DNA of 64,000 nt, from NCBI GenBank assembly GCA_934122155.1, contig CAKOVX010000006.1:23-64022 (forward strand), given 5' to 3'. Source of the stretch: an uncultured Clostridia bacterium (GTDB taxonomy: Bacteria > Bacillota > Clostridia > TANB77 > CAG-508). Positions 514 through 30,092 of the stretch are shown one piece after another. The number at the start of each line of letters is the position of its first letter. Position 1 is the first letter of the stretch. The position numbers were made by a program, and so were the translations under genes. The notes under the pieces were generated by a model that was not told where the DNA came from, searched no databases, and saw only the letters and a program-made list of their open reading frames with translations.

Positions 514-547
514 AAAAACGGTAAGAAGAATTCTTATCGTTTTTTTA
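514..547. terminator. bidirectional rho-independent terminator (ACGGTAAGAA/TTCTTATCGT stem + T-run)
   Basis: Perfect 10-bp hairpin flanked by an A-run and a T-run, between the convergent integrase and GIY-YIG genes. Confidence 0.6.
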
Positions 548-559
548 TTCTAAAATAAA

Positions 560-865: not shown

Positions 866-990
866 TTTAGTCCACCTACATTTTTTTCTTAATTTTATCA
901 TTAAATAAAACTATTGTAAATAATAGACAATATGTGATATATTAAAGAAAAATTTTATTCAAAAAATATTTAGTTCTAGAAAGGAAAATT

Positions 991-1557: not shown

Positions 1558-1565
1558 GTGAAAAA

Positions 1566-2273: not shown

Positions 2274-2320
2274 ATCACATTACCTGCTTAATTTGAATAA
2301 ATTATAGCAGGTGATTTTTT

Positions 2321-3238: not shown

Positions 3239-3330
3239 AAAGTAAAAAAACTAAATAATTTTTTTGAAATTGTGTATACTAATTGTAAAATGTTGTGATA
3301 CAATAACAAAAAAATGGAAGGAGACAAAAG

Positions 3331-4740: not shown

Positions 4741-4741
4741 A

Positions 4742-4770
4742 AAAAGAGCTCTATTAAGAGCTCTTTTTTG
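4742..4770. terminator. bidirectional rho-independent terminator (AAAAAGAGCTC...GAGCTCTTTTTT)
   Basis: GC hairpin with A/T runs on both sides. Confidence 0.65.
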
Positions 4771-4774
4771 AGAT

Positions 4775-4933
4775 TTACCTTTCACTGCTTTTCTTATCAG
4801 AGCAAACCCTATTACCAGGGCATTCATTATGCTGATATTGCTCGCAAAACCAGCAATCAGTACTAGAATCCGGGTTGATCTTTACTCTAATGTCAATGTT
4901 TTTTGTCTTTTCTTTCATTTTTTCTTCCTGCAT
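4775..4933 (-). CDS. small Cys-rich protein (52 aa, CxxC-x7-C-x5-C), hypothetical
   Basis: SD GGAGGA 7 nt before ATG; 'MQEEKMKEKTKNIDIRVKINPDSSTDCWFCEQYQHNECPGNRVCSDKKSSER'; sits in a locally GC-richer patch; below the ORF-track length cutoff. Confidence 0.4.
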   Translation of the reverse strand: MQEEKMKEKTKNIDIRVKINPDSSTDCWFCEQYQHNECPGNRVCSDKKSSER

Positions 4934-5082
4934 GTGAATTCCTCCTTAATTGCTCTATAATGATTAGATTTGGACAAATTAAATCTCTACAACTTATGTT
5001 GTATATTATATTATACTATATTTATGCTAAAAATGCAAATATTATGAAAAAAATATCCGTTATTTCTAACGGATATTTTTTA

Positions 5083-5159
<77 letters not shown>

Positions 5160-5268
5160 ATGGACATCATATATGATACCACGATTTGTAAAAAGTGTCA
5201 ACAAAAAGTACAAAAATACTAGAAAAAAATTTAGAATTACTATATAATTTGCTTAAGGTGATTATAAT

Positions 5269-5979
5269 ATGAAAGAAAGCAAAAAACTTAATATACATCA
5301 AATTTTTTGGTATTTTGTATTGTTTAGTATCTTAGGGTTAATTATTGAAACTTTATATTCTTATATAACAACTGGCATTTTAGAAAGTAGAAAAGGTTTT
5401 ATCTGGGGGCCTTTTTGTCCTATATATGGTGTTGGTGGCACATGTCTTATTTTGCTACTAGATAGAATTCATTCTAAAAATTATTTTAAATTGTTTATAT
5501 ATGGATACCTTATTGGCTCTATTGTAGAATATATGCTTAGTTTTATGATGGAAGCTTTTTATGGTGTTAGGTTTTGGGATTACACTTACACTAAAATACA
5601 CATAAACGGAAGGATTTGTTTAATATATTCACTGTTTTGGGGAATTTTAACTATTGGAATTATGAAATTTGTAAAACCGCAAATGGATAAGTTTGTTTAT
5701 AAAATTTCATCATTTAAAATAAGTAAACATGTTGAAGTTTGTTTAGCTATATTTTTAATGATTGATATGTTAGTAACTATATGGGGAATTAGTACTTATG
5801 AAACACGAGTAATTTCAACATACTATGGTGATTCTACTCCTTATAAAAACACTTCTAGCCTATTTTATAAAATTGAAAACAATTATTTTACAAATGAACG
5901 AATGAAAAAAACATTTCCAAATTTAAGAACCAAAGATAGAAATGGTAATCAAGTATTTGTAAGGGATTTAATAAAATAG
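5269..5979 (+). CDS. polytopic membrane protein (DUF1113/CmpB-like 'putative ABC-transporter type IV')
   Basis: Several TM helices; 'ETLYSYITTGILESRKGFIWGPFCPIYGVGG'. Confidence 0.6.
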   Translation: MKESKKLNIHQIFWYFVLFSILGLIIETLYSYITTGILESRKGFIWGPFCPIYGVGGTCLILLLDRIHSKNYFKLFIYGYLIGSIVEYMLSFMMEAFYGVRFWDYTYTKIHINGRICLIYSLFWGILTIGIMKFVKPQMDKFVYKISSFKISKHVEVCLAIFLMIDMLVTIWGISTYETRVISTYYGDSTPYKNTSSLFYKIENNYFTNERMKKTFPNLRTKDRNGNQVFVRDLIK

Positions 5980-6004
5980 CACTTCACTTTGAAGTGCTAT
6001 TTTA

Positions 6005-6292
6005 TTATTCTGGTAATATAATTGGATTTTTCTTTCTTTTTCTGTATAAAGTAATTTTATTTCCAATAGTTTGTACACATGTAGCATTTATTTTGTCTGC
6101 AATAGTATTGCCTAATTCTTTTACATCTTCACCTGAATTTTCTAGTACATTTATTTTTATCAATTCTCTTGCTTCTATTGCATCATCTAATTGCTTTAAC
6201 AAATTTTCTGATAGTCCAGATTTTCCAACTTGAAATATTGGATCAATTGCATTAGCTAAACCTCTTAAATATGCCCTTTGTTTGCTTGTCAT
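6005..6292 (-). CDS. yhbY: ribosome assembly RNA-binding protein YhbY (CRS1/YhbY domain)
   Basis: 95 aa; 'SKQRAYLRGLANAIDPIFQVGKSGLSENLLKQLDDAIEARELIKI'. Confidence 0.85.
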   Translation of the reverse strand: MTSKQRAYLRGLANAIDPIFQVGKSGLSENLLKQLDDAIEARELIKINVLENSGEDVKELGNTIADKINATCVQTIGNKITLYRKRKKNPIILPE

Positions 6293-6382
6293 ATCTTCTC
6301 CCTCTCTTTTATTTGTTTTAGTTTTTTTAATTATACCATATTATCAGCTAAAAAGCAATTTTCATCTTACTATATTATTTCT

Positions 6383-7861
6383 TCATTTTAGATCATTAAT
6401 ACCTGGTGCATATATTGATTTTCCGTCATAAGTAAATCTTGAACCATGGCATGGACAGTCCCAAGTTTTTTCTAAATTATTCCATGATAGTTCACATCCT
6501 AAATGACTGCAAACTGGATTTATTTTAAATATTTTTCCATCTTCAGATTTATATACTCCCACTTTTTTTCCGTCTATTTCAATAATTCCGCCTTCGCCTT
6601 TTCCTATATCATTTAGCTTTTCTTCTGGTATTTCAAGCTTTTCAACAATTAAAGATTTTCCAGTTTGCTTTAGCATATTGCCCATTTCTTGATGATTTTT
6701 TATAGGCTTTAATCTAGTTGAAGCAAATACTTCTTCATATTGATTTTTCCTTCCTAGTATTTTGTCTACAATAATATTAGCTGCCACATTTGAATTGCTT
6801 ATTCCCCATTTATTAAATCCCGTAGCTACATATACATTTGGCATTAATATTGAAAACTCACCTATATATGGTATTTTGTCTAATGTTATGCAGTCTTCTG
6901 TACACCATTTATATATCACTTTACTATCTGAATAAAATTCTTTTGCTATTCTCTCTAATGCTTCATAATTTCCTGCCAAATTCTTGCTTTCACCAGTTTT
7001 ATGGTCTAAGCCCACTATAATTAGCAATCTTTTATCTCCATATTTAGCTGTTCGTAATGCTAAATTAGGTGTGTCACTGCTAATATACATACCATCAAAA
7101 AGCTCTTTCTCTGTTTCTACCCCTATTGCATAAGACATTGACTGATACATTTTTAAAAAGTAATAACCTGGTGCATTTATAATTGGGTAATGTGTTGCTA
7201 TTACTACACTTTTAGCTGTTACTACATTACCATTTTCGGTTGTAATTTCATAACATTCTGCCTTTTCTTTTACATCTATCACTTTTGTATTTTCATATAT
7301 TTCTGCTTCCATATTATTAGCTAGTCCTTGCGCATATTTATATGGATTAAATTGTGCTTGATTTTTAAATTCAATAGCTCCAAAAGTCTCAAATGGTAGC
7401 TCTAAATTATCTACAAATTTAGCTTCTCCACCCAATTCATTTACTGCTTTTATTTCATCTTTTATTTTATTTACTTCTTCTTTTTTTCTTGCAAACACAT
7501 ATGCACTTTGCTTTTCAAAATCACACTCAATATTTTCATCTTTTATAATTTGTTCTATATTTTTTATAGCTTGTTCATTTGCATCAAAATATTGTTTAGC
7601 CTTTTCTTTTCCTTGTGACTGTATTAAATAATTATAAAATAAACCATGTTGACTTGTAATTTTTGCAGTAGATTTTCCAGTAGTTTGCATACAAATTTTA
7701 TCTTTTTCTAATAACACTGTTTTTACATTTGCTTTAGATAAATAATAAGCTGTTGTTAAACCTGTTATTCCTCCCCCAATTATACATACTTCTGCTTTTA
7801 AGTCTTTATCCAATTTATGAAATTCTTTTGTATTTGCACTATCTATCCAATATGATTTCAT
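6383..7861 (-). CDS. FAD-dependent oxidoreductase with C-terminal Rieske [2Fe-2S] domain
   Basis: 'VCIIGGGITGLTTAYYL' dinucleotide-binding motif; 'CSHLGCELSW...CPCHGSRF' Rieske CxH..CxxH; start moved to the ATG (MKSYWID) that follows SD GGAGGT. Confidence 0.85.
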   Translation of the reverse strand: MKSYWIDSANTKEFHKLDKDLKAEVCIIGGGITGLTTAYYLSKANVKTVLLEKDKICMQTTGKSTAKITSQHGLFYNYLIQSQGKEKAKQYFDANEQAIKNIEQIIKDENIECDFEKQSAYVFARKKEEVNKIKDEIKAVNELGGEAKFVDNLELPFETFGAIEFKNQAQFNPYKYAQGLANNMEAEIYENTKVIDVKEKAECYEITTENGNVVTAKSVVIATHYPIINAPGYYFLKMYQSMSYAIGVETEKELFDGMYISSDTPNLALRTAKYGDKRLLIIVGLDHKTGESKNLAGNYEALERIAKEFYSDSKVIYKWCTEDCITLDKIPYIGEFSILMPNVYVATGFNKWGISNSNVAANIIVDKILGRKNQYEEVFASTRLKPIKNHQEMGNMLKQTGKSLIVEKLEIPEEKLNDIGKGEGGIIEIDGKKVGVYKSEDGKIFKINPVCSHLGCELSWNNLEKTWDCPCHGSRFTYDGKSIYAPGINDLK

Positions 7862-7905: not shown

Positions 7906-9060
7906 TTATTTCTTTAATAATTTGACTACAATTTGCATTTCTTTTTTGTTTCGTAAAACCTTAAAAGTAACTTCATCCCCTGGCTTTTTAGTATAAATAT
8001 AGCTTCTTAAATCACACATTTTTTCTAAAGCTATTCCATCAATTTCTAACAATATATCTTTTTCTTGTATTCCATACCTTGCGGCAGCTGAATTGCCATT
8101 AACCTGCACCACATAAATTCCTTTGTCAATCTGTAAATTACTATCTAAATATGGTATTATGTTTTTGTCATATGCAAAAATTCCTAAATACGCTTCTTCA
8201 AATCCTCCTGTTGATATAAAGCTTTTTAATATTGCTTTTACTGAATTTATTGGAACTGCAAATCCAATTCCTTCTGCTGATGTAATCTTTACACTATTTA
8301 CTCCAATAACTTCTCCACTCTCATTTATCAAAGGGCCTCCACTATTTCCTGGATTTATGGTTGCATCTGTTTGTATTAAATCTTCCATATATGAAGATTT
8401 TTCATTTCCAATTTCGTCTTGTGCATTTAATATTATTGTTCTATTGGTTGCACTTACAATACCTGATGTAACAGTTCTTTGAAATTCAAAACCTATTGGG
8501 TTTCCTATTGCATATACTATTTGTCCTAATCTTGCCTTAGATGAATCACCTAAAGTAACATATTTTAAATCTTTTGCACTTATTTTTACAATTGCCAAGT
8601 CTAAATCTGAACTTGACCATACTACATTTCCTTGATAATTCTTACCTGTTGAAAGTGTTACATAGCATTTACTATATCTTTCTCCTGACACATGCTCATT
8701 TGTTAGAATATACCCATTTTCTGCCACTATCATTCCTGTTCCTAAACCTAATTTTGATGTGCTATCTTTTAAAAATATAGAGCCACCCGTTCCCTTTAAT
8801 TTTGAAATTCCTACTATGCTCTCGCTTACACTCTCTAGCATTTGGTTAATTGTTTCATTTTCATTTTTTACTTCATCTATTGTTTGTGATATTTTTGTTG
8901 CATCATATTGTTTATTTATTATTTTAGTTGGAGTTTCAATATCATAATATAGTACATATATTAGCGCTATCAAAATAACTATTAAAATACTAATAAATGT
9001 ACCTAATATGTATTTTTTTATTCTAGATTTATTTTGTTTTTTTCTAATGTACTCTTCCAT
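7906..9060 (-). CDS. htrA: HtrA/DegP-family trypsin-like serine protease with PDZ domain
   Basis: N-terminal TM; 'TNEHV', 'GNSGGPL' catalytic motifs; C-terminal PDZ. Confidence 0.85.
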   Translation of the reverse strand: MEEYIRKKQNKSRIKKYILGTFISILIVILIALIYVLYYDIETPTKIINKQYDATKISQTIDEVKNENETINQMLESVSESIVGISKLKGTGGSIFLKDSTSKLGLGTGMIVAENGYILTNEHVSGERYSKCYVTLSTGKNYQGNVVWSSSDLDLAIVKISAKDLKYVTLGDSSKARLGQIVYAIGNPIGFEFQRTVTSGIVSATNRTIILNAQDEIGNEKSSYMEDLIQTDATINPGNSGGPLINESGEVIGVNSVKITSAEGIGFAVPINSVKAILKSFISTGGFEEAYLGIFAYDKNIIPYLDSNLQIDKGIYVVQVNGNSAAARYGIQEKDILLEIDGIALEKMCDLRSYIYTKKPGDEVTFKVLRNKKEMQIVVKLLKK

Positions 9061-9152: not shown

Positions 9153-9184
9153 TTGTTGATTTTTTGTCGAATTTAATGTATAAT
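9153..9184 (+). promoter_or_regulatory. putative extended -10 promoter (TGTATAAT) upstream of the NRPS gene
   Basis: TGnTATAAT-like element about 50 nt before the ATG; no well-spaced -35. Confidence 0.3.
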
Positions 9185-9231
9185 TTAAAATATATTTCTT
9201 AAAAATAATAAATAGAAGGGATTTTTTCATT

Positions 9232-12200
9232 ATGAAAAAAGTTTTATTTGATTTAACTAACCCACAAAAGTCAATATGGTATACAGAACAGTACTTTAAA
9301 AACACTTCTGTAAATAATATTGGTGGAACTATAATTATTAAAGATAACCTAAATTTTGAATTATTAAAAAAATCTATCTATGAGTATGTAAAAACCAATG
9401 ATAGTTTTCTTATTAGGCTTTGTTTTGATGAAAAAGGAGATATAAAGCAATACATAGGGGAATTTTCGCCCTTTGTTATTGATTATGTCTCTTTTTCTTC
9501 TTTAGAAGATTTAGCTAAATTTGAAAAGCAAGATTGTGAAAAAAGCTTTACTATGCTAGATTCTAATCTATTTCGTTTTACTATGTTTTCTTTGCCTGAT
9601 AGCACTGGCGGTGTGGTATTAACAGTGCATCATATAATTTCTGATGCCCAAACAGTTAACCAGGTTGCCCCTAAGCTTATGGACTTTTACTCTCACTTTT
9701 TAAATAATACTTACCCAGATGTTTTGCAAACTTCATATGTTGATTATATAAATTCAGAAAACAAATATTTATCAAGTAAAAAGTATATTGATGATAAGTC
9801 TTTTTGGGAAAATCTTTTTGAAAAGCCTTTTTCTTCATCCAGCTTATCAACAAATTCAATAGATTCTGCTTCTTTGTGTAGCTCAAGTAGAGAATGCTTC
9901 TCAATTTCTAAGGAAGAAATGGAACAAATAAATCAATATTGTAAATCCATAAATATTTCTTGTTATCATTTCTTCATGTCCGTTTTTTCTTTATATATTG
10001 GAAAGGTAACTAATGAAAAAAACTTTGTTATTGGAACTCCTATTTTAAATAGAACAAATTTTAAGGAAAAAAATACCGCTGGTATGTTTATTAGTACTGT
10101 ACCTTTTTTAATTAATTTAGAAGAAAATCTTTTATTTACTGATTTTGCATCTAAAATCAGTGTAGAAACTTTGTCCATTTTTAGACATCAAAAATATCCT
10201 TATCAATCAATTTTAGAGTACGTTAGAAAGCAAGACCCTTCTTTGCCTAACTTGTACAATATCATGATTTCTTATCAAATCAATAAATCTAATGGTAGTA
10301 TTAATGATATTCCTTATACTACAAGATGGACTCATAGTAATACAAATATGGACGAATTAGACATTCATTTATTTGACATAAATGATACTGGAGAATTAAG
10401 TATTGCTTATGATTATCAACTCTCTAAGTATAAGCAAAAAGATATAATTAATCTACACAAAAGAATTTTATTGATTATATCTCAAATTATTAACAACCCC
10501 GATATATTAACAAATCAAATTGAACTAGTTTTACCAGAAGAAAAAGCTTTTATGCTTAATATATATAACAAACCAATTGATGTTTCTATAACTGAAACAG
10601 TAATTGACTTGTTTGAAAAACAAGTGTCAGAAAACCCTGATAAATTAGCTTTATGTTTTAAAGACATCAATTTTACATATGCTCAATTAAATAATTGCGT
10701 AAATTATTTAGCAGATTATTTACACACCAAAAACATAACTGAAGGAGACAAAATTTGTTTGTTCTTCTCTAATTCTATTGAACTAATTGTGTCAATTTTG
10801 GCTGTACTAAAATTGGGAGCTTGTTACATACCAATTGATGTTTCATACCCTATTGAACGTATAAAATATATTGTTAATAATAGTAATTGTAAAAATATAT
10901 TAACAACAAATTCACAAATTAGCAAATTAGATGATCTATCATCAATATCTTTAGAAATAAATTTATTTGACATAGAAAATAATTGTAATACTAATTTTGA
11001 AAACAAATATAGGCCTAATTTAAACAACTTGGCTTACATTATTTACACATCTGGTTCTACTGGAAACCCAAAAGGTGTTAAAATTGCTCATGAAAGTTTA
11101 GCTAACTACATTTGTTGGTCTAATAAAGAGTATGTACATGGCGAAACTACTAATTTTCCGTTATACTCTTCTATTTCCTTTGATTTAACAGTAACATCTG
11201 TATTTACTCCTTTAGTATCAGGAAATGCAATTTACATTTATGAGAACTCAAATCCACAGTTACTATTAAAGGAAATTATTGAAGATAAAAAAGTTCAAAT
11301 TATCAAGTTAACACCTGCACATTTAACATTGTTACAAGACTTTAATTTAAAAGATTCTATTGTTAGCAAATTAATAGTAGGTGGAGACATCTTAACAAAT
11401 GAAATATGTCAAAAAATCACTATGTCCTTTTCTCATTGTATTCATATTTTTAACGAATATGGACCTACTGAAGCAACTGTTGGTTGTATGATTTATGAAT
11501 ATTCACCTTCTCAGTATTCAACTGTTCCAATAGGTGTTCCTGCTGATAATACTAACTTATTTGTTTTAAATGATGATTTTAACTTAATTCCTTTTGGTTA
11601 TAATGGACAATTATATATTGCTGGGAAATGCCTTGCTAAAGGCTATGTTGAACTTCCTGTAATGACTGCTAGTAGATTTATTGCTTGCCCTTTTATTACA
11701 AATGGTTTAATGTATAAAACTGGTGATATTGTTAAATTATATGATACTGGAATTATGGAATGTATTGGTCGTAGCGATTTTCAAGTAAAAATAAATGGGT
11801 TTAGAATAGAAATTGGAGAAATTCAGTCTAGAATTTTGAACTACTCTAATATAAAAGATTGTTTTGTAACTGTACTAAATATAAAAAACACTAAAGTATT
11901 ATGTGCTTATTATGTTTGTGAAAAAACTATTGATGTTAAGAATTTAAGACATTACTTACAAAAGGTACTTCCAATGTATATGGTTCCAAAATATTATGTT
12001 AATTTAAAAGAAATTCCTCTTACAGTCAATGGTAAAGTAAATAAAAATCTATTGCCAAGCCCTTCTTTGTCAAAGCACAAAGCAATAGTTAAACCAAAAA
12101 ATGATATGGAAAATATTTTGCATGATATTTTTTGTGATTTACTACAAGTAAATGAGTTAAGTGTTACATCTAACTTTTTTGAGCACTATGTTGATTCACT

Positions 12201-13530
12201 TACCATTATAAAAGCTCAAACAAAATTATATAGCATGGGTTATAATATAAACACTCAAGATTTTTATGAATACCCAACTATTAGAAAATTATCATTACAT
12301 ATATTAAGAAAATCAAATAATAAAACCCACTTATGCAGTGAAAATATTCCTGTTATTTCTGAGATAGCAAAGCCTATTGAAAGGAAATATACATTTAATA
12401 ATATTTTATTATTTGGTGTTACAGGTTTTTTAGGAGCACATATTTTTCATGAATTACTTTTAAAAACAAACTCACAAATTTATTGCATTATACGTGAAAA
12501 AAATAATCTTAATGCAATACAAAGGTTTTATGAAAAATTCAGTTTTTATTTTCCATCTGAAAATATTGAAGATTATAAAAACAGAATACATTTAATAACT
12601 GGTAATATTTTAAAAGAAAACTTTAATCTGTCTAGTAAACAATATGATTTTCTTGGAAAGAGTATTGATTGTGTTATAAATTCTGCTGCTTTAGTAAAAC
12701 ATTATGGAAAATATGAAGAGTTTTACAACACTAATGTTGATGGTACAAAAAAAATAACAGATTTTTGCATTAAATATAATATTCCTTTACATTATGTATC
12801 TACCCTTTCTGTTTCTGGATATGGTTTAACTAAAAGCCCTGATGCAGTTTTTACAGAAAAAGATTTTTATGTTGGGCAAAATTATGAAGACAATGTTTAT
12901 GTAAAAAGTAAATTTGAAGGTGAAAAATTAATATTAAATGCTTGTAAAAATAGTAACTTATGTGCTACTATTTATAGAGTAGGAAATATTACAAATCGTT
13001 TTTCTGATGGAGCATTTCAACAAAATGCTGGTGAAAATGCATTTTTAAACAGAATATCAGCTGTAATTAATTTGCATTGTATGCCTAAAGAACTATTAAA
13101 TTTCCCTATTGAATTTACTCCAGTAGATTATTGTGCAAATTTTATAGTTGAATTGCTTACAAAAGATTTTAGACAAAATAATTTAACAGTTTATCATTTA
13201 TTTAATCAAAATTATCTTGATTTTAATTATTTGTTTAACTTCTTAAAAGATCTTAATATTAATATAGATTTATGTAATATTACAGACTTTGAAAAACGCA
13301 TACTTGACAGTAAGGATAATTATTTTGGAATTATTAATTATCTTGCAAATATAAAAAATATATCAGCAGATTCTCCTCATAATGATTTTAATGGAATATC
13401 TATTGATAATAGTTACACTAATTCTATTTTAAATAACTTAAATTTAAAATGGCCTACTCTTAATAAACATTATTTGCAAGCTGTTGTAGACTACTTAATA
13501 AAAAATAATTTTATAGGTGATAAAAAATGA
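9232..13530 (+). CDS. non-ribosomal peptide synthetase, single module C-A-T-R (terminal thioester reductase)
   Basis: C-domain 'HHIISDAQT'; A-domain cores 'YTSGSTGNPKG', 'NEYGPTEATV', 'KINGFRIEIGEI', 'LPLTVNGKVNK'; carrier domain 'FFEHYVDSL'; R-domain 'GVTGFLGAHIF' NAD(P)-binding site and YxxxK. Confidence 0.9.
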   Translation: MKKVLFDLTNPQKSIWYTEQYFKNTSVNNIGGTIIIKDNLNFELLKKSIYEYVKTNDSFLIRLCFDEKGDIKQYIGEFSPFVIDYVSFSSLEDLAKFEKQDCEKSFTMLDSNLFRFTMFSLPDSTGGVVLTVHHIISDAQTVNQVAPKLMDFYSHFLNNTYPDVLQTSYVDYINSENKYLSSKKYIDDKSFWENLFEKPFSSSSLSTNSIDSASLCSSSRECFSISKEEMEQINQYCKSINISCYHFFMSVFSLYIGKVTNEKNFVIGTPILNRTNFKEKNTAGMFISTVPFLINLEENLLFTDFASKISVETLSIFRHQKYPYQSILEYVRKQDPSLPNLYNIMISYQINKSNGSINDIPYTTRWTHSNTNMDELDIHLFDINDTGELSIAYDYQLSKYKQKDIINLHKRILLIISQIINNPDILTNQIELVLPEEKAFMLNIYNKPIDVSITETVIDLFEKQVSENPDKLALCFKDINFTYAQLNNCVNYLADYLHTKNITEGDKICLFFSNSIELIVSILAVLKLGACYIPIDVSYPIERIKYIVNNSNCKNILTTNSQISKLDDLSSISLEINLFDIENNCNTNFENKYRPNLNNLAYIIYTSGSTGNPKGVKIAHESLANYICWSNKEYVHGETTNFPLYSSISFDLTVTSVFTPLVSGNAIYIYENSNPQLLLKEIIEDKKVQIIKLTPAHLTLLQDFNLKDSIVSKLIVGGDILTNEICQKITMSFSHCIHIFNEYGPTEATVGCMIYEYSPSQYSTVPIGVPADNTNLFVLNDDFNLIPFGYNGQLYIAGKCLAKGYVELPVMTASRFIACPFITNGLMYKTGDIVKLYDTGIMECIGRSDFQVKINGFRIEIGEIQSRILNYSNIKDCFVTVLNIKNTKVLCAYYVCEKTIDVKNLRHYLQKVLPMYMVPKYYVNLKEIPLTVNGKVNKNLLPSPSLSKHKAIVKPKNDMENILHDIFCDLLQVNELSVTSNFFEHYVDSLTIIKAQTKLYSMGYNINTQDFYEYPTIRKLSLHILRKSNNKTHLCSENIPVISEIAKPIERKYTFNNILLFGVTGFLGAHIFHELLLKTNSQIYCIIREKNNLNAIQRFYEKFSFYFPSENIEDYKNRIHLITGNILKENFNLSSKQYDFLGKSIDCVINSAALVKHYGKYEEFYNTNVDGTKKITDFCIKYNIPLHYVSTLSVSGYGLTKSPDAVFTEKDFYVGQNYEDNVYVKSKFEGEKLILNACKNSNLCATIYRVGNITNRFSDGAFQQNAGENAFLNRISAVINLHCMPKELLNFPIEFTPVDYCANFIVELLTKDFRQNNLTVYHLFNQNYLDFNYLFNFLKDLNINIDLCNITDFEKRILDSKDNYFGIINYLANIKNISADSPHNDFNGISIDNSYTNSILNNLNLKWPTLNKHYLQAVVDYLIKNNFIGDKK

Positions 13531-15509
13531 AACAAAAAACACTTTCAAAGATAAAATCGTGTAAAACACTAGCATTATTAAATGCTTTTATAGCCATGTT
13601 GGTTATGATTATATTATACTTTACACTACCAACTATATTAAATTACCCTCAAAATTCTATTGATAATGATTTTCAGGTTGAAATAGTTGGAATTAAATAT
13701 ACTCACCAATTTATTATACTTTCAACAATTATAGTTGCCTTAGTATATATTGGTTTTAGGTTTGTATATAGCAGAATTAATTTTAATAAAAATATTAGTA
13801 AAGATTCACTATTAAAAATAAGAACAAAATGCTTTAATTATCCATATTTAATGATTGTTCTATTATCCTTTATTCCGACCATTATTTGTGGAATTTTATT
13901 AGTAGTTTTCAAAACAGATTTTGAACTTTTATTAAAATTATGTATTGTTATACTATCTTTTGGTACAGTATATTCAATAGTTTCTTATATGGTAGGTAAA
14001 AACTTTTTTGAACAAAAACTTATTGAGTCATCTGAGATTGTAGGAAATAAAAAAGGTGGAATCAGATTAAATATTTATAAAAAATTATTAATTGAAATTA
14101 TTCCATTATTTTTATATTCATTTATATTATTACTATTAATTAGTACAACTATAATGACAACTGAAAAAGGAGATTTATTATACAATATTTATAGAAATGA
14201 GCTAATAAAAGAGTTTGACACATCTACTGTTTATACTTTAGATGAAGTTCAAAATAAGCTAAACACTCTATCTTTAAACTCTCAAAAAGATCATTCAGTA
14301 ATTTTATCTGCTAAAGATGGAACAGTTTATTACTCTCCAAAACCATTAAATGACTTTTTTATAAAATATGCTCTTACATATTATGATGAAATGAATGGAC
14401 ATATTTTTGAATATTATGGTCAAAACTCACAAGCAGCTGTTATAAAAGTTCATACTGTTGAAGGCGATTGCTTTGTTGGTATTAGATTTTTCGTATTTGC
14501 AAATGAAGTTATAACACCATTTATAATTGTAACTATTATTTTAATTATATTTAATTTAATATTTGTTATTTATATTGGAAAAGGGTTGTCAAACGACATA
14601 AACAACGTAAGTGATGGTATGAATCATATATCAAATTCTGAAAATGTAGTTTTTGAAAAAAATCTTCCAATTACTTCAAATGATGAGATGGCAGACTTAA
14701 TTTTAGCATTTAATAAAATTCAAGATCTGACTAGAAACTATGTAACCCAAATTCATGACAATCAAAATATGTTAATGGAAAGAGAAAGATTAGCCTCTTT
14801 AGGTCAGTTAATTGGAGGCATTGCTCACAATTTAAAAACTCCTATAATGTCTATATCTGGTGCAGCAGAAGGTTTAACAGATTTAATTAAAGAATATGAA
14901 GCTTCTGTTGGTGACCCTGATGTTACAATACAAGATCACCATGATATTGCAAAAGATATGAAAGATTGGATAGAAAAGATCCGCTCTTATACTGAATATA
15001 TGTCAGATATTATTACTGCTGTTAAAGGCCAAGCAGTCACAATGTCTGAAGAACAAGAAACTTCGTTTACTTTAGATGAACTTGTAAAACGTGTAGATAT
15101 TTTAATGAAACATGAGTTAAAAAATGCATTGGTTAGTTTAAATATATGTATGCAAACAGATGAGCAGACCATATTGAAAGGAAATATCAACAGTTTAGTA
15201 CAAGTTATAAACAATATGGTTTCAAATGCAATACAAGCCTATGATGGTAAACCAGATCAGCAAATTGACTTAGTATTAAAAAGAGAAAACAATAACATAA
15301 TCATTTCTGTAAAAGACTATGGCTCTGGGCTTCCAGATGAAGTACAAAATAAATTATTTAAAGAAATGATAACAACAAAAGGTAAAAATGGTACTGGTCT
15401 TGGATTATTTATGTCATATTCTACTATCCGTGCTCACTTTAATGGAAATATTACTTTTGAAACTGCAAAAGGCCAAGGAACTACATTTAATATCATATTG
15501 CCAATTTAA
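13527..15509 (+). CDS. sensor histidine kinase, multi-TM sensor with extracytoplasmic loop; start overlaps the NRPS stop (ATGA)
   Basis: 5-6 TM helices; H-box 'IAHNLKTPI'; HATPase_c 'DYGSGLPDE', 'GTGLGL'. Confidence 0.9.
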   Translation: MKQKTLSKIKSCKTLALLNAFIAMLVMIILYFTLPTILNYPQNSIDNDFQVEIVGIKYTHQFIILSTIIVALVYIGFRFVYSRINFNKNISKDSLLKIRTKCFNYPYLMIVLLSFIPTIICGILLVVFKTDFELLLKLCIVILSFGTVYSIVSYMVGKNFFEQKLIESSEIVGNKKGGIRLNIYKKLLIEIIPLFLYSFILLLLISTTIMTTEKGDLLYNIYRNELIKEFDTSTVYTLDEVQNKLNTLSLNSQKDHSVILSAKDGTVYYSPKPLNDFFIKYALTYYDEMNGHIFEYYGQNSQAAVIKVHTVEGDCFVGIRFFVFANEVITPFIIVTIILIIFNLIFVIYIGKGLSNDINNVSDGMNHISNSENVVFEKNLPITSNDEMADLILAFNKIQDLTRNYVTQIHDNQNMLMERERLASLGQLIGGIAHNLKTPIMSISGAAEGLTDLIKEYEASVGDPDVTIQDHHDIAKDMKDWIEKIRSYTEYMSDIITAVKGQAVTMSEEQETSFTLDELVKRVDILMKHELKNALVSLNICMQTDEQTILKGNINSLVQVINNMVSNAIQAYDGKPDQQIDLVLKRENNNIIISVKDYGSGLPDEVQNKLFKEMITTKGKNGTGLGLFMSYSTIRAHFNGNITFETAKGQGTTFNIILPI

Positions 15510-15527
15510 ACATTAACTACTAAGTTT

Positions 15528-15568
15528 AAATCTAGTCATTTCAACAAATGACTAGATTTTTTTTATTT
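15528..15568 (+). terminator. rho-independent terminator (ATCTAGTCAT/ATGACTAGAT + T8)
   Basis: Perfect 10-bp stem followed by a T-run after the kinase gene. Confidence 0.7.
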
Positions 15569-15662
15569 TATTTTTTTAATAAATACTGTACAATTCGACA
15601 AACTATGATATAATGTTGTTGTCATCTTGAGTATACTTACTATAAATATTGAGGTGAAAAGT

Positions 15663-16715
15663 ATGAGAAAAAATATGCAAAGTGCAAACGATAAAGGCTA
15701 TAAAATTATAGCGGTTGATGATGAAGAAGGAATTGTTGACTCTTTATCAATCTTTCTTAAAAGATCTGGCTATAATTTTACAGGAGTTACCGACCCTATT
15801 GAAGCAATTGAAAAGGTAAAAAATGAGCATTTTGATTTAATGATTTTGGACTTTATTATGACACCAATTCATGGTGATCAAGTAGTTGAAGAAATACGCA
15901 AATTCAATAAAGAATTATATATTTTGTTACTAACTGGTCATAAAGATTTGGCTCCACCTCTAGAAACAATCAGAAAATTAGATATTCAAGGTTATTGTGA
16001 GAAAAGTGATAAGTTTGACCAATTACTTCTTTTAATTGAGTCTGGAATAAAATCAATTGAACAAATGAATGAAATTAAAAGAATAAATGAAGAACTTTCT
16101 TCTACTTATGAAAAATTGGAAAGAGCTTATTTAGATAGTATTCAAACTTTACGTTATACAGTTGAAGCAAAAGATCCATACACTAGAGGTCACTCAGATA
16201 GAGTTTCTAAATATTCTGTTTTACTTGGAAAATATTTAGGTTTATCTGACACTGATTTAAAAACTTTAGAGGTTGGTGGATTATTCCATGATATTGGAAA
16301 AATTGGTATTCCTGATAGCATTTTATTAAAAGAATCTAAGCTAACAGATGATGAATATTCACAAATAAAAAATCACCCTGCAATTGGCGCACATATCTTA
16401 TGCAATGCTGAGGTATTTCAAGATATTATACCAATTGTAAAACATCATCATGAAAGATTTGATGGAAACGGTTACCCAGGAAAGTTAAAAGGAACTGATA
16501 TCCCTTATTTAGCTCGTGTAGCAGCTGTTGCTGATACTTTTGATGCGATGACATCAAGAAGAACTTATCGTGATCCTTTAAGTTTAGATGTCGTAAAAGC
16601 TGAAATTGAAAGATGCTCTGGAACACAATTTGACCCAGAAATTGCAAAAGTATTTTTAGATATTTTAAATAATCATTATGATGAAATAAATGAAATCCAG
16701 GAACAATTCAGATAA
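15663..16715 (+). CDS. response regulator with REC + HD-GYP (c-di-GMP phosphodiesterase) domains
   Basis: REC 'KIIAVDDEEG...LMILDFIM'; 'HHERFDGNGYPGKLKG' HD-GYP; start taken at the ATG after SD GAGGTG. Confidence 0.85.
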   Translation: MRKNMQSANDKGYKIIAVDDEEGIVDSLSIFLKRSGYNFTGVTDPIEAIEKVKNEHFDLMILDFIMTPIHGDQVVEEIRKFNKELYILLLTGHKDLAPPLETIRKLDIQGYCEKSDKFDQLLLLIESGIKSIEQMNEIKRINEELSSTYEKLERAYLDSIQTLRYTVEAKDPYTRGHSDRVSKYSVLLGKYLGLSDTDLKTLEVGGLFHDIGKIGIPDSILLKESKLTDDEYSQIKNHPAIGAHILCNAEVFQDIIPIVKHHHERFDGNGYPGKLKGTDIPYLARVAAVADTFDAMTSRRTYRDPLSLDVVKAEIERCSGTQFDPEIAKVFLDILNNHYDEINEIQEQFR

Positions 16716-16725
16716 GGGGTATTTT

Positions 16726-17838
16726 ATGTTTAAGGTTTTAGTTCTATCATGTAGTACAGGCGGTGGTCATAATTCTGCTGCAAGTGCTATAACAGAGGAA
16801 TTAAGAAATAAAGGAGTTCAAGTTGATTTTAAAGAATATTTGGACTTAATAAATTATAAAATAGCTAATGTAGTAAATAAATTATATATTAGTTCAACAA
16901 AAGGAAATGGTGCTGTTTTTAAAAGAGTTTATAAACTAGGCGAATTATATGAGAAAACTAAAATTACATCTCCAGTTTATGGCGTAAATAGACTACACAG
17001 AAAAAAATTATATAATTATATTGTTGAAAATAAATATGATTATGTTGTAGTTACTCACCTATTCCCTGCTGAAGTTTTAACTGCTATAAAAAAACAACAT
17101 GGCATACATTTTATTGCAGTTGCAACAGATTATAAATCAATTCCATTTTGGTCAGAAACTAATCCAGACTATTTTATAATTCCACATAAAGATTTAATTG
17201 AAGATTTTACTAAAAAAGGTATCAGCCACGAAAAGCTAATACCTTTTGGTATTCCTGTGTCAACTAATTTTAGTAAAGATTTAGATAAATCTAAAATATT
17301 TGCTGAATTAAATTTAGATGAAAATAAAAAATATATATTAGTTATGACAGGAAGTATGGGATTTGGAAATGTTACAGGTATAATAGATGTTTTGCAAGAT
17401 GAAATTTCTGAAACAATTTTAGTCGCCTGTGGAAATAACAAAAAAATTTATGAAAATATTTCAAATAATTATGACTCAAATAAAGTAATTCCTTTTGGTT
17501 TTACTCCACAAATTTATAAATATATGGCTATAAGTGAACTTTTATTAACTAAGCCTGGAGGACTTACAACAACAGAGGCTGCCACAATAAATATTCCTAT
17601 TATTCATACTATGCCAATACCTGGTTGTGAAACATATAACGCAGAATTTTTTGAGAGCCGTGGAATGTCTATTAGCTGTAAAAATACTACTGATATAAAA
17701 AATGCAGTAATATCTCTTTTAAATGATAAAAATAAAATGGAAAATATAATAAAAGCACAAAAACAAAATATAGATAAAAATGCTTGTAGCAAAATTTGTG
17801 AATTTATAATAGATGAAATAAGGAAATATAGTAAATGA
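16726..17838 (+). CDS. MGDG-synthase family glycosyltransferase (UgtP-like diacylglycerol glycosyltransferase)
   Basis: 'KVLVLSCSTGGGHNSAASAI' MGDG_synth N-terminal signature; start placed at 'MFKVL' after SD AGGGG. Confidence 0.8.
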   Translation: MFKVLVLSCSTGGGHNSAASAITEELRNKGVQVDFKEYLDLINYKIANVVNKLYISSTKGNGAVFKRVYKLGELYEKTKITSPVYGVNRLHRKKLYNYIVENKYDYVVVTHLFPAEVLTAIKKQHGIHFIAVATDYKSIPFWSETNPDYFIIPHKDLIEDFTKKGISHEKLIPFGIPVSTNFSKDLDKSKIFAELNLDENKKYILVMTGSMGFGNVTGIIDVLQDEISETILVACGNNKKIYENISNNYDSNKVIPFGFTPQIYKYMAISELLLTKPGGLTTTEAATINIPIIHTMPIPGCETYNAEFFESRGMSISCKNTTDIKNAVISLLNDKNKMENIIKAQKQNIDKNACSKICEFIIDEIRKYSK

Positions 17839-18575
17839 AAGAGAATTTACAATCAAATGTAAATAATGAAAATGAAGATATAATAAAAATGTGGGAACCA
17901 CTTAAATTTGATATTGGCTTAAATTATAAATATGTAAAAAATAATATATTTTTTAAGTTAATATCAAATTTATTTTACTACATCATAGTTGCACCAATTA
18001 TTTTTTTAATTTCTAAGATTATTTTTGGACTAAAAATTGAAGGAAAAGAAAATTTAAAAAATATTAAAACTGGCGCTATTTCAGTATCAAACCATGTGCA
18101 ATATTTAGATTGTACAATGCTTGGTCTTGCATGGTTTCCTAGAAGAATATATTACACTGCTAAAACTGATGGCTTTAAAATGCCTGTTGTTAGGCATTTA
18201 GTGCGTTTGCTATATGCTATTCCTATACCTGAAAAAATTTCTTGTAAAGAAAATTTTTATAAAGCAATTGATGATTTATTAGCTAAAAATAAAATAGTAC
18301 ATTTTTACCCTGAAGCTTCTTTATGGCCATATTATAATAAATTACGTAATTTTAAAAATGGAGCATTTAAAATTGCTTCAAAAAATAATGTACCAATTAT
18401 TCCATTTGTATTTAGTTTTAGAGAGCCAACTGGTATTTTAAAGCTTTTTAAGTCTAAGCCTTGCTTAACTTTAAAAGTTCTACCACCTGTTTATTCAGAC
18501 CAAAATTTAGCATTTAATGAAAGATATTTAGATTTAAAAGAAAATGTATATAAAAAAATGAGTGAAAAAATATAA
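17835..18575 (+). CDS. plsC: 1-acyl-sn-glycerol-3-phosphate acyltransferase (PlsC family)
   Basis: 'SNHVQYLD' HX4D acyltransferase motif; overlaps the glycosyltransferase stop (ATGA). Confidence 0.8.
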   Translation: MKENLQSNVNNENEDIIKMWEPLKFDIGLNYKYVKNNIFFKLISNLFYYIIVAPIIFLISKIIFGLKIEGKENLKNIKTGAISVSNHVQYLDCTMLGLAWFPRRIYYTAKTDGFKMPVVRHLVRLLYAIPIPEKISCKENFYKAIDDLLAKNKIVHFYPEASLWPYYNKLRNFKNGAFKIASKNNVPIIPFVFSFREPTGILKLFKSKPCLTLKVLPPVYSDQNLAFNERYLDLKENVYKKMSEKI

Positions 18576-18599
18576 AATATATTCTTTCACTCTTTTTCT

Positions 18600-20795
18600 T
18601 TAAGCATCTTTTATTGAAAGTTGAACTTTTTGTCTTTCTAAGTCAATTCCAATAACTTTTACTTTTACAATATCACCAACTGAAACTACATCAGATGGAT
18701 TTTTTACAAAGCTATTACTCAATTGTGAAATATGTACTAAACCATCATGTTTTACACCTATATCAACAAAAGCACCAAAGTCTGTAACATTTCTAACAGT
18801 TCCTGTTAAAACCATTCCATCTCTCAAATCTTCAAATTTAAGTACATCAGCTCTTAATATTTGCTTAGGCATTTCATCTCTTGGGTCTCTACCTGGTTTT
18901 GACATTTCTTCAATAATATCTGCTAAAGTCATTTCACCAACATCAAGTTCTTTAGCTGTTTCTTTTACATTTACTTCTAATAATTTAGCTTTTATTTCTG
19001 ATTGTTTTTCTTTATTTAATAAATCCTCTTTTTTGTATCCTAATTTATTAAGTAAATTTTCTGCAACAGAATAACTTTCTGGGTGAACTCCTGTAATTTC
19101 TAAAGCATTTTTTCCACCAGGAATTCTAATAAATCCTGCACATTGCTCAAATGCTGCTTTTCCTAATTTAGGAACTTTTAATAATTCTTTTCTTTCAGCT
19201 AATTTACCATTTTCATCACGGTATTTTACTATGTTATTTGCAATAGTTTTATTTATTCCTGCTACATAAGAAAGTAATGATGGTGTAGCTGTATTAACAT
19301 CAACTCCAACTTCATTTACTGCATCTTCAACAACACCAGTTAAGCTTTCTGTTAATTTCTTTTGGTCAACATCATGTTGATATTGCCCTACTCCTATTGC
19401 CTTTGGGTCTATTTTTACAAGCTCTGCAAGTGGGTCTTGCAATCTTCTTGCAATTGATATTGCACCTCTTAAAGATACGTTTATATCTGGATATTCTTCT
19501 GTTGCAAGTTTTGATGCAGAGTATACAGATGCTCCAGCTTCACTTACAATTGCATAATGAAGTGGTCTTTCAATTTCTTTAATCATATCTGCAACAAAGC
19601 TTTCAGATTCTCTTGAAGCTGTTCCATTTCCTATTGCAATAATATCAACTTTATATTTTTCTATTAAAGCTTTTAGCTCTTTTTTTGCACCTTCTACATC
19701 ATTTTGCGGTTCTGTTGGGTATACAGTAGTAGTTGCAAGTAATTTTCCTGTTTCATCAATTACTGCAATTTTACAACCTGTACGATATGCTGGGTCAAAC
19801 CCCATTACTGTTAAACCTTTTAAAGGTGCTGCTAAAAGTAAAGGTTTTGCATTTTTTCCAAATACTTTAATGGCTTGAGTTTCTGCCTTTTCTGTTAAGT
19901 CAGAACGAATTTCTCTTTCAATAGATGGTTCAATTAATCTGCTCCAACTATCTGCAATTGTTTCTTCTAATATTGTAGTAAATTGAGTTTTTTGTTTAAT
20001 AATATCTCTATTTATTAAATCTAAAATTTTATCTTCTGGTTTTTCAATTTTTACTTTTAAAAATTCTTCAGCTTCTCCGCGATTGATAGCTAAAATTCTA
20101 TGGCTAGGTAAGTGATTTACCTTTTCGCTAAATTCATAATACATATTATATGCTGTTTTTTCTTCTGGCTTTGTAGCTTTAGTTATTATAACGCCTTCTC
20201 TATAACAAATACGTTTAATTTGTTTACGATATTCAGGGTTGTCTGATATAATTTCTGCAATAATATCTTTTGCACCTTGAATAGCATCTTCTACACTTGC
20301 TACAACTTTTTCTCTGTTATTTTTATCTTCTTCTGATAATTTATCAATATTTACATATTGTTTTGCAATTTCTTCAATTGGTGTTTTTTCTGTTTGAGCT
20401 AATATAATTTCAGCTAATGGCTCTAAGCCTTTTGCTTTAGCTACTGTTGCTCTTGTCTTTTTCTTTTGTTTATATGGCCTGTATATATCTTCAACTTCTG
20501 CTAGTGTTTTAGCATTTTCTAAGTTTGTAAGTATTTCTTCTGTAAGTTTTCCTTGATTTTCAATTGATGTTTTTACTTCTGCTTTTCTTGCTTCTAAGTT
20601 ACGAAGATATGTAAGTCTTTCTCCTAAATCTCTTAAAGTTTCATCTGAAAGACCACCTGTTACTTCTTTTCTATAACGTGCAATAAAAGGTATTGTATTT
20701 CCTTCATTTATTAATTCTATTGTTCTTATAACTTGCACTAATTTTATATTTAATTCTTCTGCAATTATATTTGCTATTCTTTCTTGTGTATCCAT
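18600..20795 (-). CDS. tex: Tex transcription accessory protein (S1/YqgF/HhH domains)
   Basis: 731 aa; C-terminal S1 domain 'GMVLTGTVRNVTDFGAFVDIG'; Tex-typical length. Confidence 0.9.
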   Translation of the reverse strand: MDTQERIANIIAEELNIKLVQVIRTIELINEGNTIPFIARYRKEVTGGLSDETLRDLGERLTYLRNLEARKAEVKTSIENQGKLTEEILTNLENAKTLAEVEDIYRPYKQKKKTRATVAKAKGLEPLAEIILAQTEKTPIEEIAKQYVNIDKLSEEDKNNREKVVASVEDAIQGAKDIIAEIISDNPEYRKQIKRICYREGVIITKATKPEEKTAYNMYYEFSEKVNHLPSHRILAINRGEAEEFLKVKIEKPEDKILDLINRDIIKQKTQFTTILEETIADSWSRLIEPSIEREIRSDLTEKAETQAIKVFGKNAKPLLLAAPLKGLTVMGFDPAYRTGCKIAVIDETGKLLATTTVYPTEPQNDVEGAKKELKALIEKYKVDIIAIGNGTASRESESFVADMIKEIERPLHYAIVSEAGASVYSASKLATEEYPDINVSLRGAISIARRLQDPLAELVKIDPKAIGVGQYQHDVDQKKLTESLTGVVEDAVNEVGVDVNTATPSLLSYVAGINKTIANNIVKYRDENGKLAERKELLKVPKLGKAAFEQCAGFIRIPGGKNALEITGVHPESYSVAENLLNKLGYKKEDLLNKEKQSEIKAKLLEVNVKETAKELDVGEMTLADIIEEMSKPGRDPRDEMPKQILRADVLKFEDLRDGMVLTGTVRNVTDFGAFVDIGVKHDGLVHISQLSNSFVKNPSDVVSVGDIVKVKVIGIDLERQKVQLSIKDA

Positions 20796-20997: not shown

Positions 20998-21741
20998 GTG
21001 AAAAAATCAGCTGATTATAGAGCTAGTGCAAGAGAAAAATTGTCTGGAAAGTGGGGTAAAGCTGCTCTTATTTCATTAGGTTACTTTGTAGTATTCTTTG
21101 TTTTAGGTTTTATTGAAGGATTACTTCCTGAAAACATAAAATCTATTTTCTCAATTGCTACAACTATTATTGAAATACCTTTAAGCTTTGGATTACTTAT
21201 ATCTTTCTATAAATTATTTAATGGTGAAGATGCTAAAGCTTTTGACTTTTTAAAATCTGGTTTTTCAAACTTTAAAAGAGCATGGTTAGTTGGATTAAAT
21301 GTTGCGTTAAAAATGATAATTCCAATTATTATTTTAATTGCTGGTATGTCAATCTCAATGGTTACCGGAATAATAACTTTTGCACGAGGAACAGCATCTG
21401 GAAGTTCTTATGCATTTGCAGCAATTGGTGTACTTATGTATATAATAGGTATAATTTGGACTATACTTCAATCATATTATTATCAATTAGCTTACGTTGT
21501 TGCAGTTGACAATGAAGAACTTTCAAATAAAGAAGTGGTAGAAAAATGTAAAGAAATTATGCAAGGTAAACGTTGGAAGCTATTTTGTTTACAATTTTCA
21601 TTTATTGGTTGGGCTATATTAGCAGGTCTAACTTTTGGAATTGGAATGTTATGGTTGGTTCCATATATTCAACTTGCTACAATTTCTTTCTATGAAGATG
21701 CAATTGGTAAAAATGAAGAAGTCAATAATATTGCTGAATAA
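20998..21741 (+). CDS. DUF975 family integral membrane protein
   Basis: GTG start after SD AAAGGGGGG; 'DYRASAREKLSGKWGKAALI' then multiple TM helices. Confidence 0.7.
   Translation: MKKSADYRASAREKLSGKWGKAALISLGYFVVFFVLGFIEGLLPENIKSIFSIATTIIEIPLSFGLLISFYKLFNGEDAKAFDFLKSGFSNFKRAWLVGLNVALKMIIPIIILIAGMSISMVTGIITFARGTASGSSYAFAAIGVLMYIIGIIWTILQSYYYQLAYVVAVDNEELSNKEVVEKCKEIMQGKRWKLFCLQFSFIGWAILAGLTFGIGMLWLVPYIQLATISFYEDAIGKNEEVNNIAE

Positions 21742-30016: not shown

Positions 30017-30092
<76 letters not shown>

Follow-up and report, generated by a model that had tools for sequence, protein, structure and literature searches.

A candidate signal-synthase and receptor cassette built from a nonribosomal peptide synthetase and a histidine kinase sensor in gut Clostridia

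The window analyzed here is a stretch of 64,000 nucleotides (nt) from an uncultured Clostridia bacterium (GenBank assembly GCA_934122155.1, contig CAKOVX010000006.1, positions 23 to 64,022 of the forward strand). It encodes a single-module nonribosomal peptide synthetase (NRPS) whose gene overlaps that of a sensor histidine kinase, followed by a REC–HD-GYP response regulator. When these genes are set beside approximately 100 related gut-metagenome loci, the NRPS and the sensor half of the kinase vary together, while the kinase core varies with the regulator. The original prediction had described one coupled locus. On the alignments presented below the finding is larger, namely a clade-wide recombining cassette of NRPS and sensor. 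The interpretation favored here, with somewhat better than an even chance of being correct, is that the NRPS and the sensor half form a signal-synthase/receptor cassette seated on a fixed output of kinase core and REC–HD-GYP regulator.

A synthetase and sensor slot with mosaic kinases

The contexts of regulator orthologues were collected through three look-ups and through a metagenome scan. The scan yielded 80 loci with regulator identities of 71-98%, which is the range across the clade. The domains of the comparison loci, designated here with the prefix L, were mapped with a reference set of our own. The common gene order in these relatives is htrA (reverse), NRPS, kinase, regulator, tex (reverse), an ABC-F ATPase gene (reverse) and corA (reverse). 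In the slot between htrA and the regulator, an NRPS open reading frame (ORF) ending in a thioester reductase (R) domain lies directly 5′ of the kinase in 65 of the 67 informative loci, defined as those in which the kinase sensor is present and the upstream sequence extends for 1.5 kb or more. The spacing between the two called genes ranges from -11 to +57 nt, and the link holds down to approximately 30% NRPS identity and across two sensor architectures. The tight coupling of an NRPS to a two-component kinase, which the original prediction had singled out as unusual, is thus kept throughout the clade. No clean locus with a kinase and no NRPS, or with an NRPS and no kinase, was found where sequence reached, with the exception of L026. 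In this locus, a mobile element of 40% G+C (positions 1-7860), carrying a relaxase and two serine recombinases, abuts a window-type kinase. The junction lies 34 nt before the NRPS stop position; either the element has inserted into the NRPS or the assembly is chimeric. A different locus, L071, is frameshifted throughout.

Two classes of content occupy the slot. In class 1, to which the window belongs, a synthetase with condensation (C), adenylation (A), carrier (T) and R domains in the order C-A-T-R accompanies a sensor with six transmembrane (TM) segments and an outside domain. Class 2 joins a C-A-T-C-A-T-R synthetase to a HisKA_7TM-PAS sensor, and the NRPS of L023 is larger still, with at least three modules. 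The A-domain codes of the single-module enzymes are DLTKIGEVGK (the window), DFWNIGMVHK (the classical Thr code), DSELTAEVCK, DAIFGGLMFK and DIFQMAGIFK; the two-module enzymes carry many different pairs of codes. At 70% identity the sensors fall into 15 class-1 and 24 class-2 clusters, approximately 39 in total, and they group according to the A-domain code of the last module. Such diversity is characteristic of receptors whose ligands vary.

A profile search for distant relatives of the sensor returned only two proteins, one of them informative. This kinase, with a sensor 24% identical to that of the window, again lies 3′ of a C-A-T-R NRPS, with an overlap of 17 nt. It is itself overlapped by a REC gene, the product of which has an output domain of approximately 200 amino acids (aa) that is not HD-GYP. 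As this distant lineage has the link with a non-HD-GYP REC protein, the NRPS–kinase association is older than the HD-GYP output. In the two loci of the lineage, L109 (5524-18209) and L110, the C-A-T-R NRPS, kinase and REC protein are encoded by three overlapping genes. Next come an FtsX/ABC transporter pair and another REC gene of similar type. A genome scan recovered relatives of the NRPS from Clostridium sp. CAG:508 and uncultured human and mouse gut Clostridia and from nowhere else, its Bacillus and Paenibacillus matches being only the terminal modules of larger NRPSs. The exact window proteins were found on eight metagenome contigs.

The two halves of the kinase follow different partners. 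Over 56 loci (1540 pairs), the Spearman correlation (rho) of pairwise identities is 0.88 for sensor against NRPS and 0.74 for kinase core against regulator, compared with 0.10 for sensor against regulator and 0.04 for kinase core against sensor. The last 252 residues of the kinase track the regulator and Tex whatever sensor is attached to them. Loci L030 and L032 match the window at 97% in the regulator, 98% in Tex and 88-89% in the kinase core, and they carry two-module NRPSs with other A-domain codes and an unalignable HisKA_7TM-PAS sensor. The relatives that share the window's own type are no closer to it in backbone (Tex 98%) than these two loci. When the window kinase is compared with that of L032, the blastp alignment begins at aa 409, in the first turn of the DHp helix, and runs at 88% over 252 aa. 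The corresponding blastn alignment runs at 93% across nt 14699-20795, with just 65-71% patches upstream. Read from these breakpoints, the right-hand edge of the cassette is the start of the DHp helix, at kinase residue 409. The original prediction had reckoned with conservation of the neighboring genes in relatives that lack the NRPS, as expected of an insertion next to housekeeping genes. The outcome was one that it had not anticipated: what is conserved independently of the NRPS is the kinase core and the regulator, and the sensor half travels with the NRPS.

Exchange between distant backbones is seen in L063 and L044, whose NRPSs are approximately 95% identical overall, compared with 75% for the regulator and 64% for the kinase core. 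Judged by these identities, whole cassettes move between distant backbones. At a finer scale, the near-identical NRPSs of L041, L044 and L063 differ only in a swapped module-1 A domain (aa ~500-1100), and their near-identical kinases differ only in a sensor/PAS patch (aa ~100-350). A strict match between module-1 A domain and sensor patch is suggested by L041 versus L044 and contradicted by L063.

The ratio of nonsynonymous to synonymous substitution (dN/dS) between the window NRPS and its orthologues is 0.14-0.16, and values of 0.05-0.19 across every NRPS and kinase domain indicate purifying selection. Positive selection as the source of NRPS and kinase divergence was not found. Synonymous divergence (dS) of the NRPS–kinase unit is approximately 0.9, against 0.05-0.2 in the block from the regulator to tex. 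The combination of low dN/dS and high dS points to old alleles or recombination rather than to fast protein evolution, and the contrast in dS fits old alleles whose flanks recombine.

Anatomy of the synthetase, kinase and regulator

The NRPS gene (9232-13530, forward strand), the proposed signal synthase, encodes 1432 aa and was assigned from Pfam, NCBIfam and motif reading. Its domains occupy nt 9253-10554 (C), 10612-12036 (A), 12118-12303 (T) and 12400-13515 (R). Pfam places Condensation at aa 8-441 (E-value 1.3e-70), AMP-binding at 461-805, AMP-binding_C at 863-935, PP-binding at 963-1024 and NAD_binding_4 at 1062-1305 (E-value 2e-46). This is the C-A-T-R order that had been proposed from the sequence, and the catalytic motifs are intact. 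The active-site motif of the C domain is HHIISDA (aa 133-139), in which Ala replaces the last Gly of HHxxxDG. The A domain has its core motifs and Lys517, and scores 371 bits against the 317-bit cut-off of TIGR01733; the phosphopantetheine-attachment serine of the carrier domain lies within YVDSL. An R domain after the carrier domain, the feature on which the original prediction hinged, is found both as the NAD_binding_4 match and as a match to the thioester reductase model TIGR01746, which spans aa 1057-1428 with 201 bits, slightly below its 213-bit cut-off. The R-domain motifs GVTGFLGAH and YVKSK are intact.

The Stachelhaus code of the window enzyme, DLTKIGEVGK, is listed among the Asp/Asn-type codes in PMC12283262. 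The R domain is predicted to yield an aldehyde or an alcohol, the sequence leaving room for both, and the predicted product of the enzyme as a whole is an N-acyl-asparagine-derived aldehyde or alcohol. By way of speculation, an N-acyl-asparagine aldehyde could cyclize onto its own side-chain amide.

A C domain begins all NRPSs of the family. In the window enzyme it stands at the N-terminus of the first module, and its best matches in the PDB are mixed: the elongation-type TycC, VibH and the starter C domain of RzmA. An acyl-CoA-ligase-like gene adjoins the NRPS in L019, L021, L022, L065, L066, L069 and L081. The gene encodes a 575-aa long-chain acyl-CoA-ligase-like protein and lies on the reverse strand at 3768-5618 in L019, L021 and L022, and on the forward strand directly 5′ of the NRPS in the other four. 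Frameshifted remnants of such a gene are present in L015 (8083-9799) and L071 (1813-3311). Together, the N-terminal C domains and the neighboring ligase genes support N-acylation of the amino acid. No acyl-CoA-ligase-like gene is located in the window, and for its NRPS we infer an acyl donor.

The model for MxcG, the myxochelin synthetase, aligns end to end with the window NRPS (aa 6-1362) at 475 bits, against a cut-off of 2300 bits. Stand-alone A or T genes, including one for an aryl carrier protein, were not found in the window. On the score and on the lack of these genes, identification of the enzyme as MxcG was rejected. The window NRPS also aligns with module 2 of AusA. A variant of the locus is present in L108 (4751-9049), where the kinase is 100% identical to that of the window and the NRPS differs by 4 single-nucleotide polymorphisms. 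One of these, a C-to-T change at the equivalent of window position 10189, converts Q320 in the C domain to a stop codon. It is either a natural variant that lacks the synthase and keeps the receptor, or an error at approximately 8x coverage.

The whole kinase (13527-15509, 660 aa) contains HisKA and HATPase_c in Pfam. Its sensor half, aa 1-408 (13527-14750, forward strand), comprises six TM segments, the outside domain and a linker, as delineated by hydropathy and AlphaFold2. The kinase core, aa 409-660 (14751-15509, forward strand), comprises the DHp helix with H434 and HATPase_c, as delineated by Pfam and the blastp/blastn breakpoint. A kinase with five or six TM helices and an extracytoplasmic loop had been anticipated; hydropathy resolves six hydrophobic segments, with an outside domain of approximately 105 aa between TM5 and TM6. 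The phospho-acceptor position, H434, lies in the H-box GGIAHNLKTP. In the AlphaFold2 model the outside domain (aa 211-318, nt 14157-14480) is a PAS/Cache-like alpha/beta unit, with a confidence score (pLDDT) of 85-92 over aa 213-322. No Pfam family matches the sensor region of the window kinase. The class-1 sensor family is small, with 228 clusters at 50% identity among 1.84 billion representatives.

The response regulator (15663-16715, forward strand, 350 aa) consists of a REC domain (nt 15705-16034) and an HD-GYP phosphodiesterase domain (nt 16155-16643), matched in Pfam by REC, HD_5 (E-value 1.8e-36) and HD. Its start is the ATG at 15663, with the ribosome-binding site GAGGTG, instead of the TTG at 15627; this start and that of the glycosyltransferase described below were set by gene calls on identical contigs and by the starts of tblastn alignments. 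Within REC, the DD pair, the Thr and the Lys accompany an acceptor Asp located in LMILDF. The output domain carries HSDR, HDIGK and HHERFDGNGYPG, in agreement with the REC–HD-GYP assignment made earlier. In NCBIfam the regulator comes closest to “response regulator c-di-GMP phosphodiesterase, NosR family”, with a score of 207 bits that falls short of the 400-bit cut-off. The predicted substrate is most likely cyclic di-GMP (c-di-GMP). The distance between kinase and regulator is at most 400 nt in 58 of 73 loci. From this conserved proximity, and from the co-divergence of kinase core and regulator (rho 0.74), we infer that the two proteins are paired.

Transcription signals and flanking genes

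The features named in the original prediction were all located where it had placed them, by Pfam, NCBIfam and motif reading. The NRPS stop codon and the kinase ATG overlap as ATGA (13527-13530), exactly as proposed. In the 171-bp divergent intergenic region between htrA and the NRPS, a promoter-like site, TTGATT-17-TATAAT, precedes the NRPS (9156-9184, forward strand; 10 of 12 consensus matches). The NRPS–kinase transcription unit is closed by the expected terminator-like hairpin 3′ of the kinase (15528-15559, forward strand), with a 14-bp stem, a 4-nt loop and then a T-run, TTTTTATTTT. A further promoter-like site, with an extended -10 (TGnTATAAT), lies 5′ of the regulator (15587-15614, forward strand) and, like the first, was assigned from its consensus match only. 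Overall, the promoter and terminator scans were not enriched over shuffled sequence; the hairpin and the site 5′ of the regulator rest on their position and not on statistics. A single operon of NRPS and regulator is not supported, because the terminator intervenes and relatives have 0.8-3.5 kb of unrelated genes at this point. The genes inserted between kinase and regulator include those for rubrerythrin and TelA, among others.

Downstream of the regulator lie two genes on the forward strand that were assigned through Pfam and NCBIfam. One encodes a UgtP-like glycolipid glycosyltransferase of the MGDG_synth type (16726-17838, 370 aa), which resembles diglucosyl-diacylglycerol synthase; its start is the ATG at 16726, which does not overlap the regulator. 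The other encodes a PlsC acyltransferase (17835-18575), and the overlap of the two genes noted at the outset amounts to 4 nt (17835-17838). The pair is confined to the backbone group closest to the window, where it occurs irrespective of the type of cassette. Locus L032 has a two-module NRPS and a different sensor, yet both genes are present; they are absent at the locus in L002, L008, L030 and the distant clades. The suggestion that they lipidate or glycosylate the product was accordingly abandoned. Their presence tracks the backbone and not the cassette, which places them outside the system and rules them out as tailoring genes.

On the left, an HtrA-type serine protease with a PDZ domain (7906-9060, reverse strand; Pfam) is the conserved divergent neighbor of the cassette in nearly all loci. 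The gene is intact in the window; in L004, L006, L015, L019, L038, L049, L050, L054, L057, L073, L075 and L076 it is broken up, with protease and PDZ domain on different ORFs. A gene for a DUF975 membrane protein (20998-21741), between tex and the ABC-F gene in the window, is an insertion/deletion polymorphism: it is missing in L001-L003 and L008, whereas many of the remaining loci have it next to tex or the regulator.

The window has a G+C content of approximately 27% and includes the replication-origin region, with dnaA (49164-50489), gyrB and gyrA. Between gyrA and gyrB there is an island of 17-19% G+C (39302-43491), possibly an inserted mobile element, which codes for a TraG-type P-loop ATPase (41090-42538) and a ParA/AAA_31 ATPase (39876-41093). 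The stretch at 30020-36262, of 21-25% G+C, resembles an integrated element; it opens with a tRNA cluster (30020-30292), and the genes beyond this code for a TrwB-like coupling protein, a DnaB_2/DnaD-like protein and an IstB/DnaA-like ATPase. The gene mnmE (trmE), at 53441-54821, is apparently broken into two overlapping ORFs, of 327 and 152 aa, which could reflect a frameshift or a sequencing error.

Readings of the cassette and their meaning

In the proposed mechanism, the C-A-T-R NRPS would N-acylate one amino acid, specified by the Asn-type code, with the acyl donor supplied in trans. The reductase domain would then release an N-acyl-amino aldehyde or alcohol, which may exit the cell or partition into the membrane. 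There it would be recognized by the variable sensor half of the co-translated kinase, with its six TM segments and PAS/Cache-like outside domain. On the gene arrangement, the NRPS product is most likely the ligand of the adjoining kinase. The conserved kinase core would hand phosphate to the REC–HD-GYP regulator, which would alter cyclic-dinucleotide levels, most likely through c-di-GMP hydrolysis. Joint replacement of the synthetase and the sensor half could thereby give rise to many distinct signal/receptor types that share one common output. A broader proposal, put forward tentatively and given slightly less than an even chance, is that N-acyl amino or peptide aldehydes of nonribosomal origin serve uncultured, small-genome gut Clostridia (the relatives of Clostridium sp. 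CAG:508) as strain-specific autoinducers, the dozens of cassettes being pherotypes.

Several observations weigh against a signaling role. Within the 64-kb window, no phosphopantetheinyl transferase, no transporter or exporter and no c-di-GMP riboswitch were found, and no ORF with the GGDEF motif of a diguanylate cyclase was found in the window or in the fetched loci. By Pfam, the regulator has only REC and HD-GYP and no DNA-binding domain, and the classical autoinduction loop is therefore missing. Foldseek gave no significant structural match for the outside domain of the kinase (best E-value 0.56). The regulator occurs with no adjacent cassette in L053, L072, L085, L091 and L092. The coupling is not one-to-one, as L063 combines the module-1 A domain of L044 with the sensor type of L041. 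Physical contiguity, with the conserved core as a recombination anchor, could alone yield co-inheritance. The acyl donor, product structure, export, ligand recognition, phosphotransfer and nucleotide substrate of the scheme are all postulated. In addition, all relatives are metagenome assemblies, and chimeric assembly could account for some of the mosaics. Against this, the key configurations were met again in independent samples, as well as in a polished contig of 1.84 Mb.

It is unlikely, though to be taken seriously, that the product is a secreted (acyl-)amino or peptide aldehyde directed at host or competitor proteases and that the kinase reads an unrelated cue, such as the state of the envelope or a host or dietary factor. 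Co-variation would then follow from adjacency and the core anchor, given that the sensor is contiguous with the 3′ end of the NRPS. R-terminated NRPSs of gut Clostridia are said to make protease-inhibiting peptide aldehydes, A-domain and sensor type prove separable in L063, L041 and L044, and a regulator of REC and HD-GYP only cannot directly control transcription. Such a scheme leaves unexplained that the kinase sits 3′ of an R-terminated NRPS so regularly (65 of 67 loci, plus one very distant lineage). Nor does it explain a hypervariability of the sensor equal to that of the synthetase (two architectures, approximately 39 clusters), if what the sensor reads is a common environmental cue. It also does not account for repeated breakpoints at the sensor/DHp junction instead of between genes.

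The kinase might also sense the NRPS product privately, either as feedback on production or to shield the cell's own proteases, such as HtrA, from the aldehyde, with the diversity reflecting an arms race over an external target. Translational coupling would fix the ratio of synthase to sensor in the producer, the unit in the window contains no exporter gene, and the HtrA serine protease is a conserved divergent neighbor. Nothing marks HtrA as the target, however, and htrA is split in many loci that bear a cassette. The pattern of polymorphism fits known intercellular pherotype loci, and the nonsense codon in the L108 NRPS beside an identical kinase is easier to understand if neighbors supply the signal, although it may be a sequencing error. 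Private sensing is accordingly regarded as improbable. Fortuitous adjacency, in which a secondary-metabolite gene was inserted beside a housekeeping two-component system, is already disfavored and is given hardly any credence. Some relatives keep the regulator and have no cassette, and the flanking htrA, tex, ABC-F ATPase gene and corA are ordinary housekeeping genes. Against this, the kinase and NRPS are never seen apart where sequence reached, except in L026, and the coupling spans approximately 30% NRPS identity, two sensor architectures and the distant lineage.

The signal-synthase/receptor reading has parallels in known systems. In the pherotype loci comQXPA of B. subtilis, agrBDCA of S. 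aureus and comCDE of S. pneumoniae, polymorphism extends over the signal genes together with the sensor half of the kinase, and the kinase core and regulator are conserved. The present locus likewise combines a polymorphic synthase and sensor half with a conserved kinase core and regulator, with several types per backbone and similar types on different backbones. It differs in that the proposed signal maker is a reductive-release NRPS, where theirs is a ribosomal peptide with a processing enzyme, and in that the regulator is an HD-GYP enzyme, where theirs is a DNA-binding activator. With an NRPS as its putative signal maker and a regulator devoid of DNA-binding domains, the locus at most works like agr or comQXPA and is not a member of that group. 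With regard to output, the closest analogue is the Rpf system of Xanthomonas and its diffusible signal factor (DSF), made up of the RpfF synthase, the multi-TM sensor kinase RpfC and RpfG, a REC–HD-GYP regulator that lowers c-di-GMP. In both cases the gene for a synthase of a lipid-like small-molecule signal, a predicted one at the present locus, lies beside a multi-TM kinase with a REC–HD-GYP partner. RpfF is of the crotonase family, and RpfC, a hybrid kinase, also contains REC and HPt, whereas here an NRPS and a plain HisKA-HATPase kinase are found. We know of no pherotype-like cassette variation in Rpf.

In terms of enzymology, the nearest relatives are the peptide-aldehyde NRPSs of gut Clostridia and MxcG (C-A-T-R, myxochelin), which share the N-terminal C domain, one or two A-T modules and a terminal thioester reductase. 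Guo et al. in 2017 reportedly traced protease-inhibiting (acyl-)dipeptide aldehydes, or pyrazinones, to R-terminated NRPSs of gut Clostridia, and Schneider et al. in 2018 reportedly described ruminopeptin, a protease inhibitor from an enzyme of the same kind. To our knowledge, neither study involves a coupled sensor kinase. The two-module relatives at the present locus, with C-A-T-C-A-T-R, follow the same enzyme logic as the gut peptide-aldehyde NRPSs; the window enzyme differs from these and from MxcG in being single-module, with an Asn-type code and no aryl carrier protein nearby. Both of these gut NRPS studies are summarized in PMC12327764. Precedent for an R-domain NRPS-like enzyme as signal maker comes from the Ham/Pvf/Mgo systems, in which the A-T-R enzymes HamD and PvfC make valdiazen-type diffusible autoinducers from one amino acid (PMC5878181). 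Unlike the present locus, those systems are proteobacterial, need N-oxygenase tailoring genes, and have neither an adjacent sensor kinase nor cassette polymorphism; the starter C domain of Ham (HamF) serves the antifungal fragin and not the signal. Literature searches, which did not extend to the full texts of the two gut peptide-aldehyde studies named above, found no account of NRPS–sensor-kinase coupling.

If the signaling reading is correct, this would be the first pherotype-type signaling system with an NRPS-made signal. It would also give a testable function to gut NRPS genes that are otherwise taken to make host-directed protease inhibitors. The peptide-aldehyde NRPSs of the CAG:508 clade would then be devices of communication or kin recognition, instead of or besides protease inhibitors. 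The approximately 39 sensor clusters, tied to readable NRPS codes, would amount to natural pairs of molecule and receptor in abundant uncultured gut bacteria. Recombination at the conserved kinase core would swap signal and receptor with no rewiring of the output, which would be of use for design and for the strain-level ecology of these organisms.

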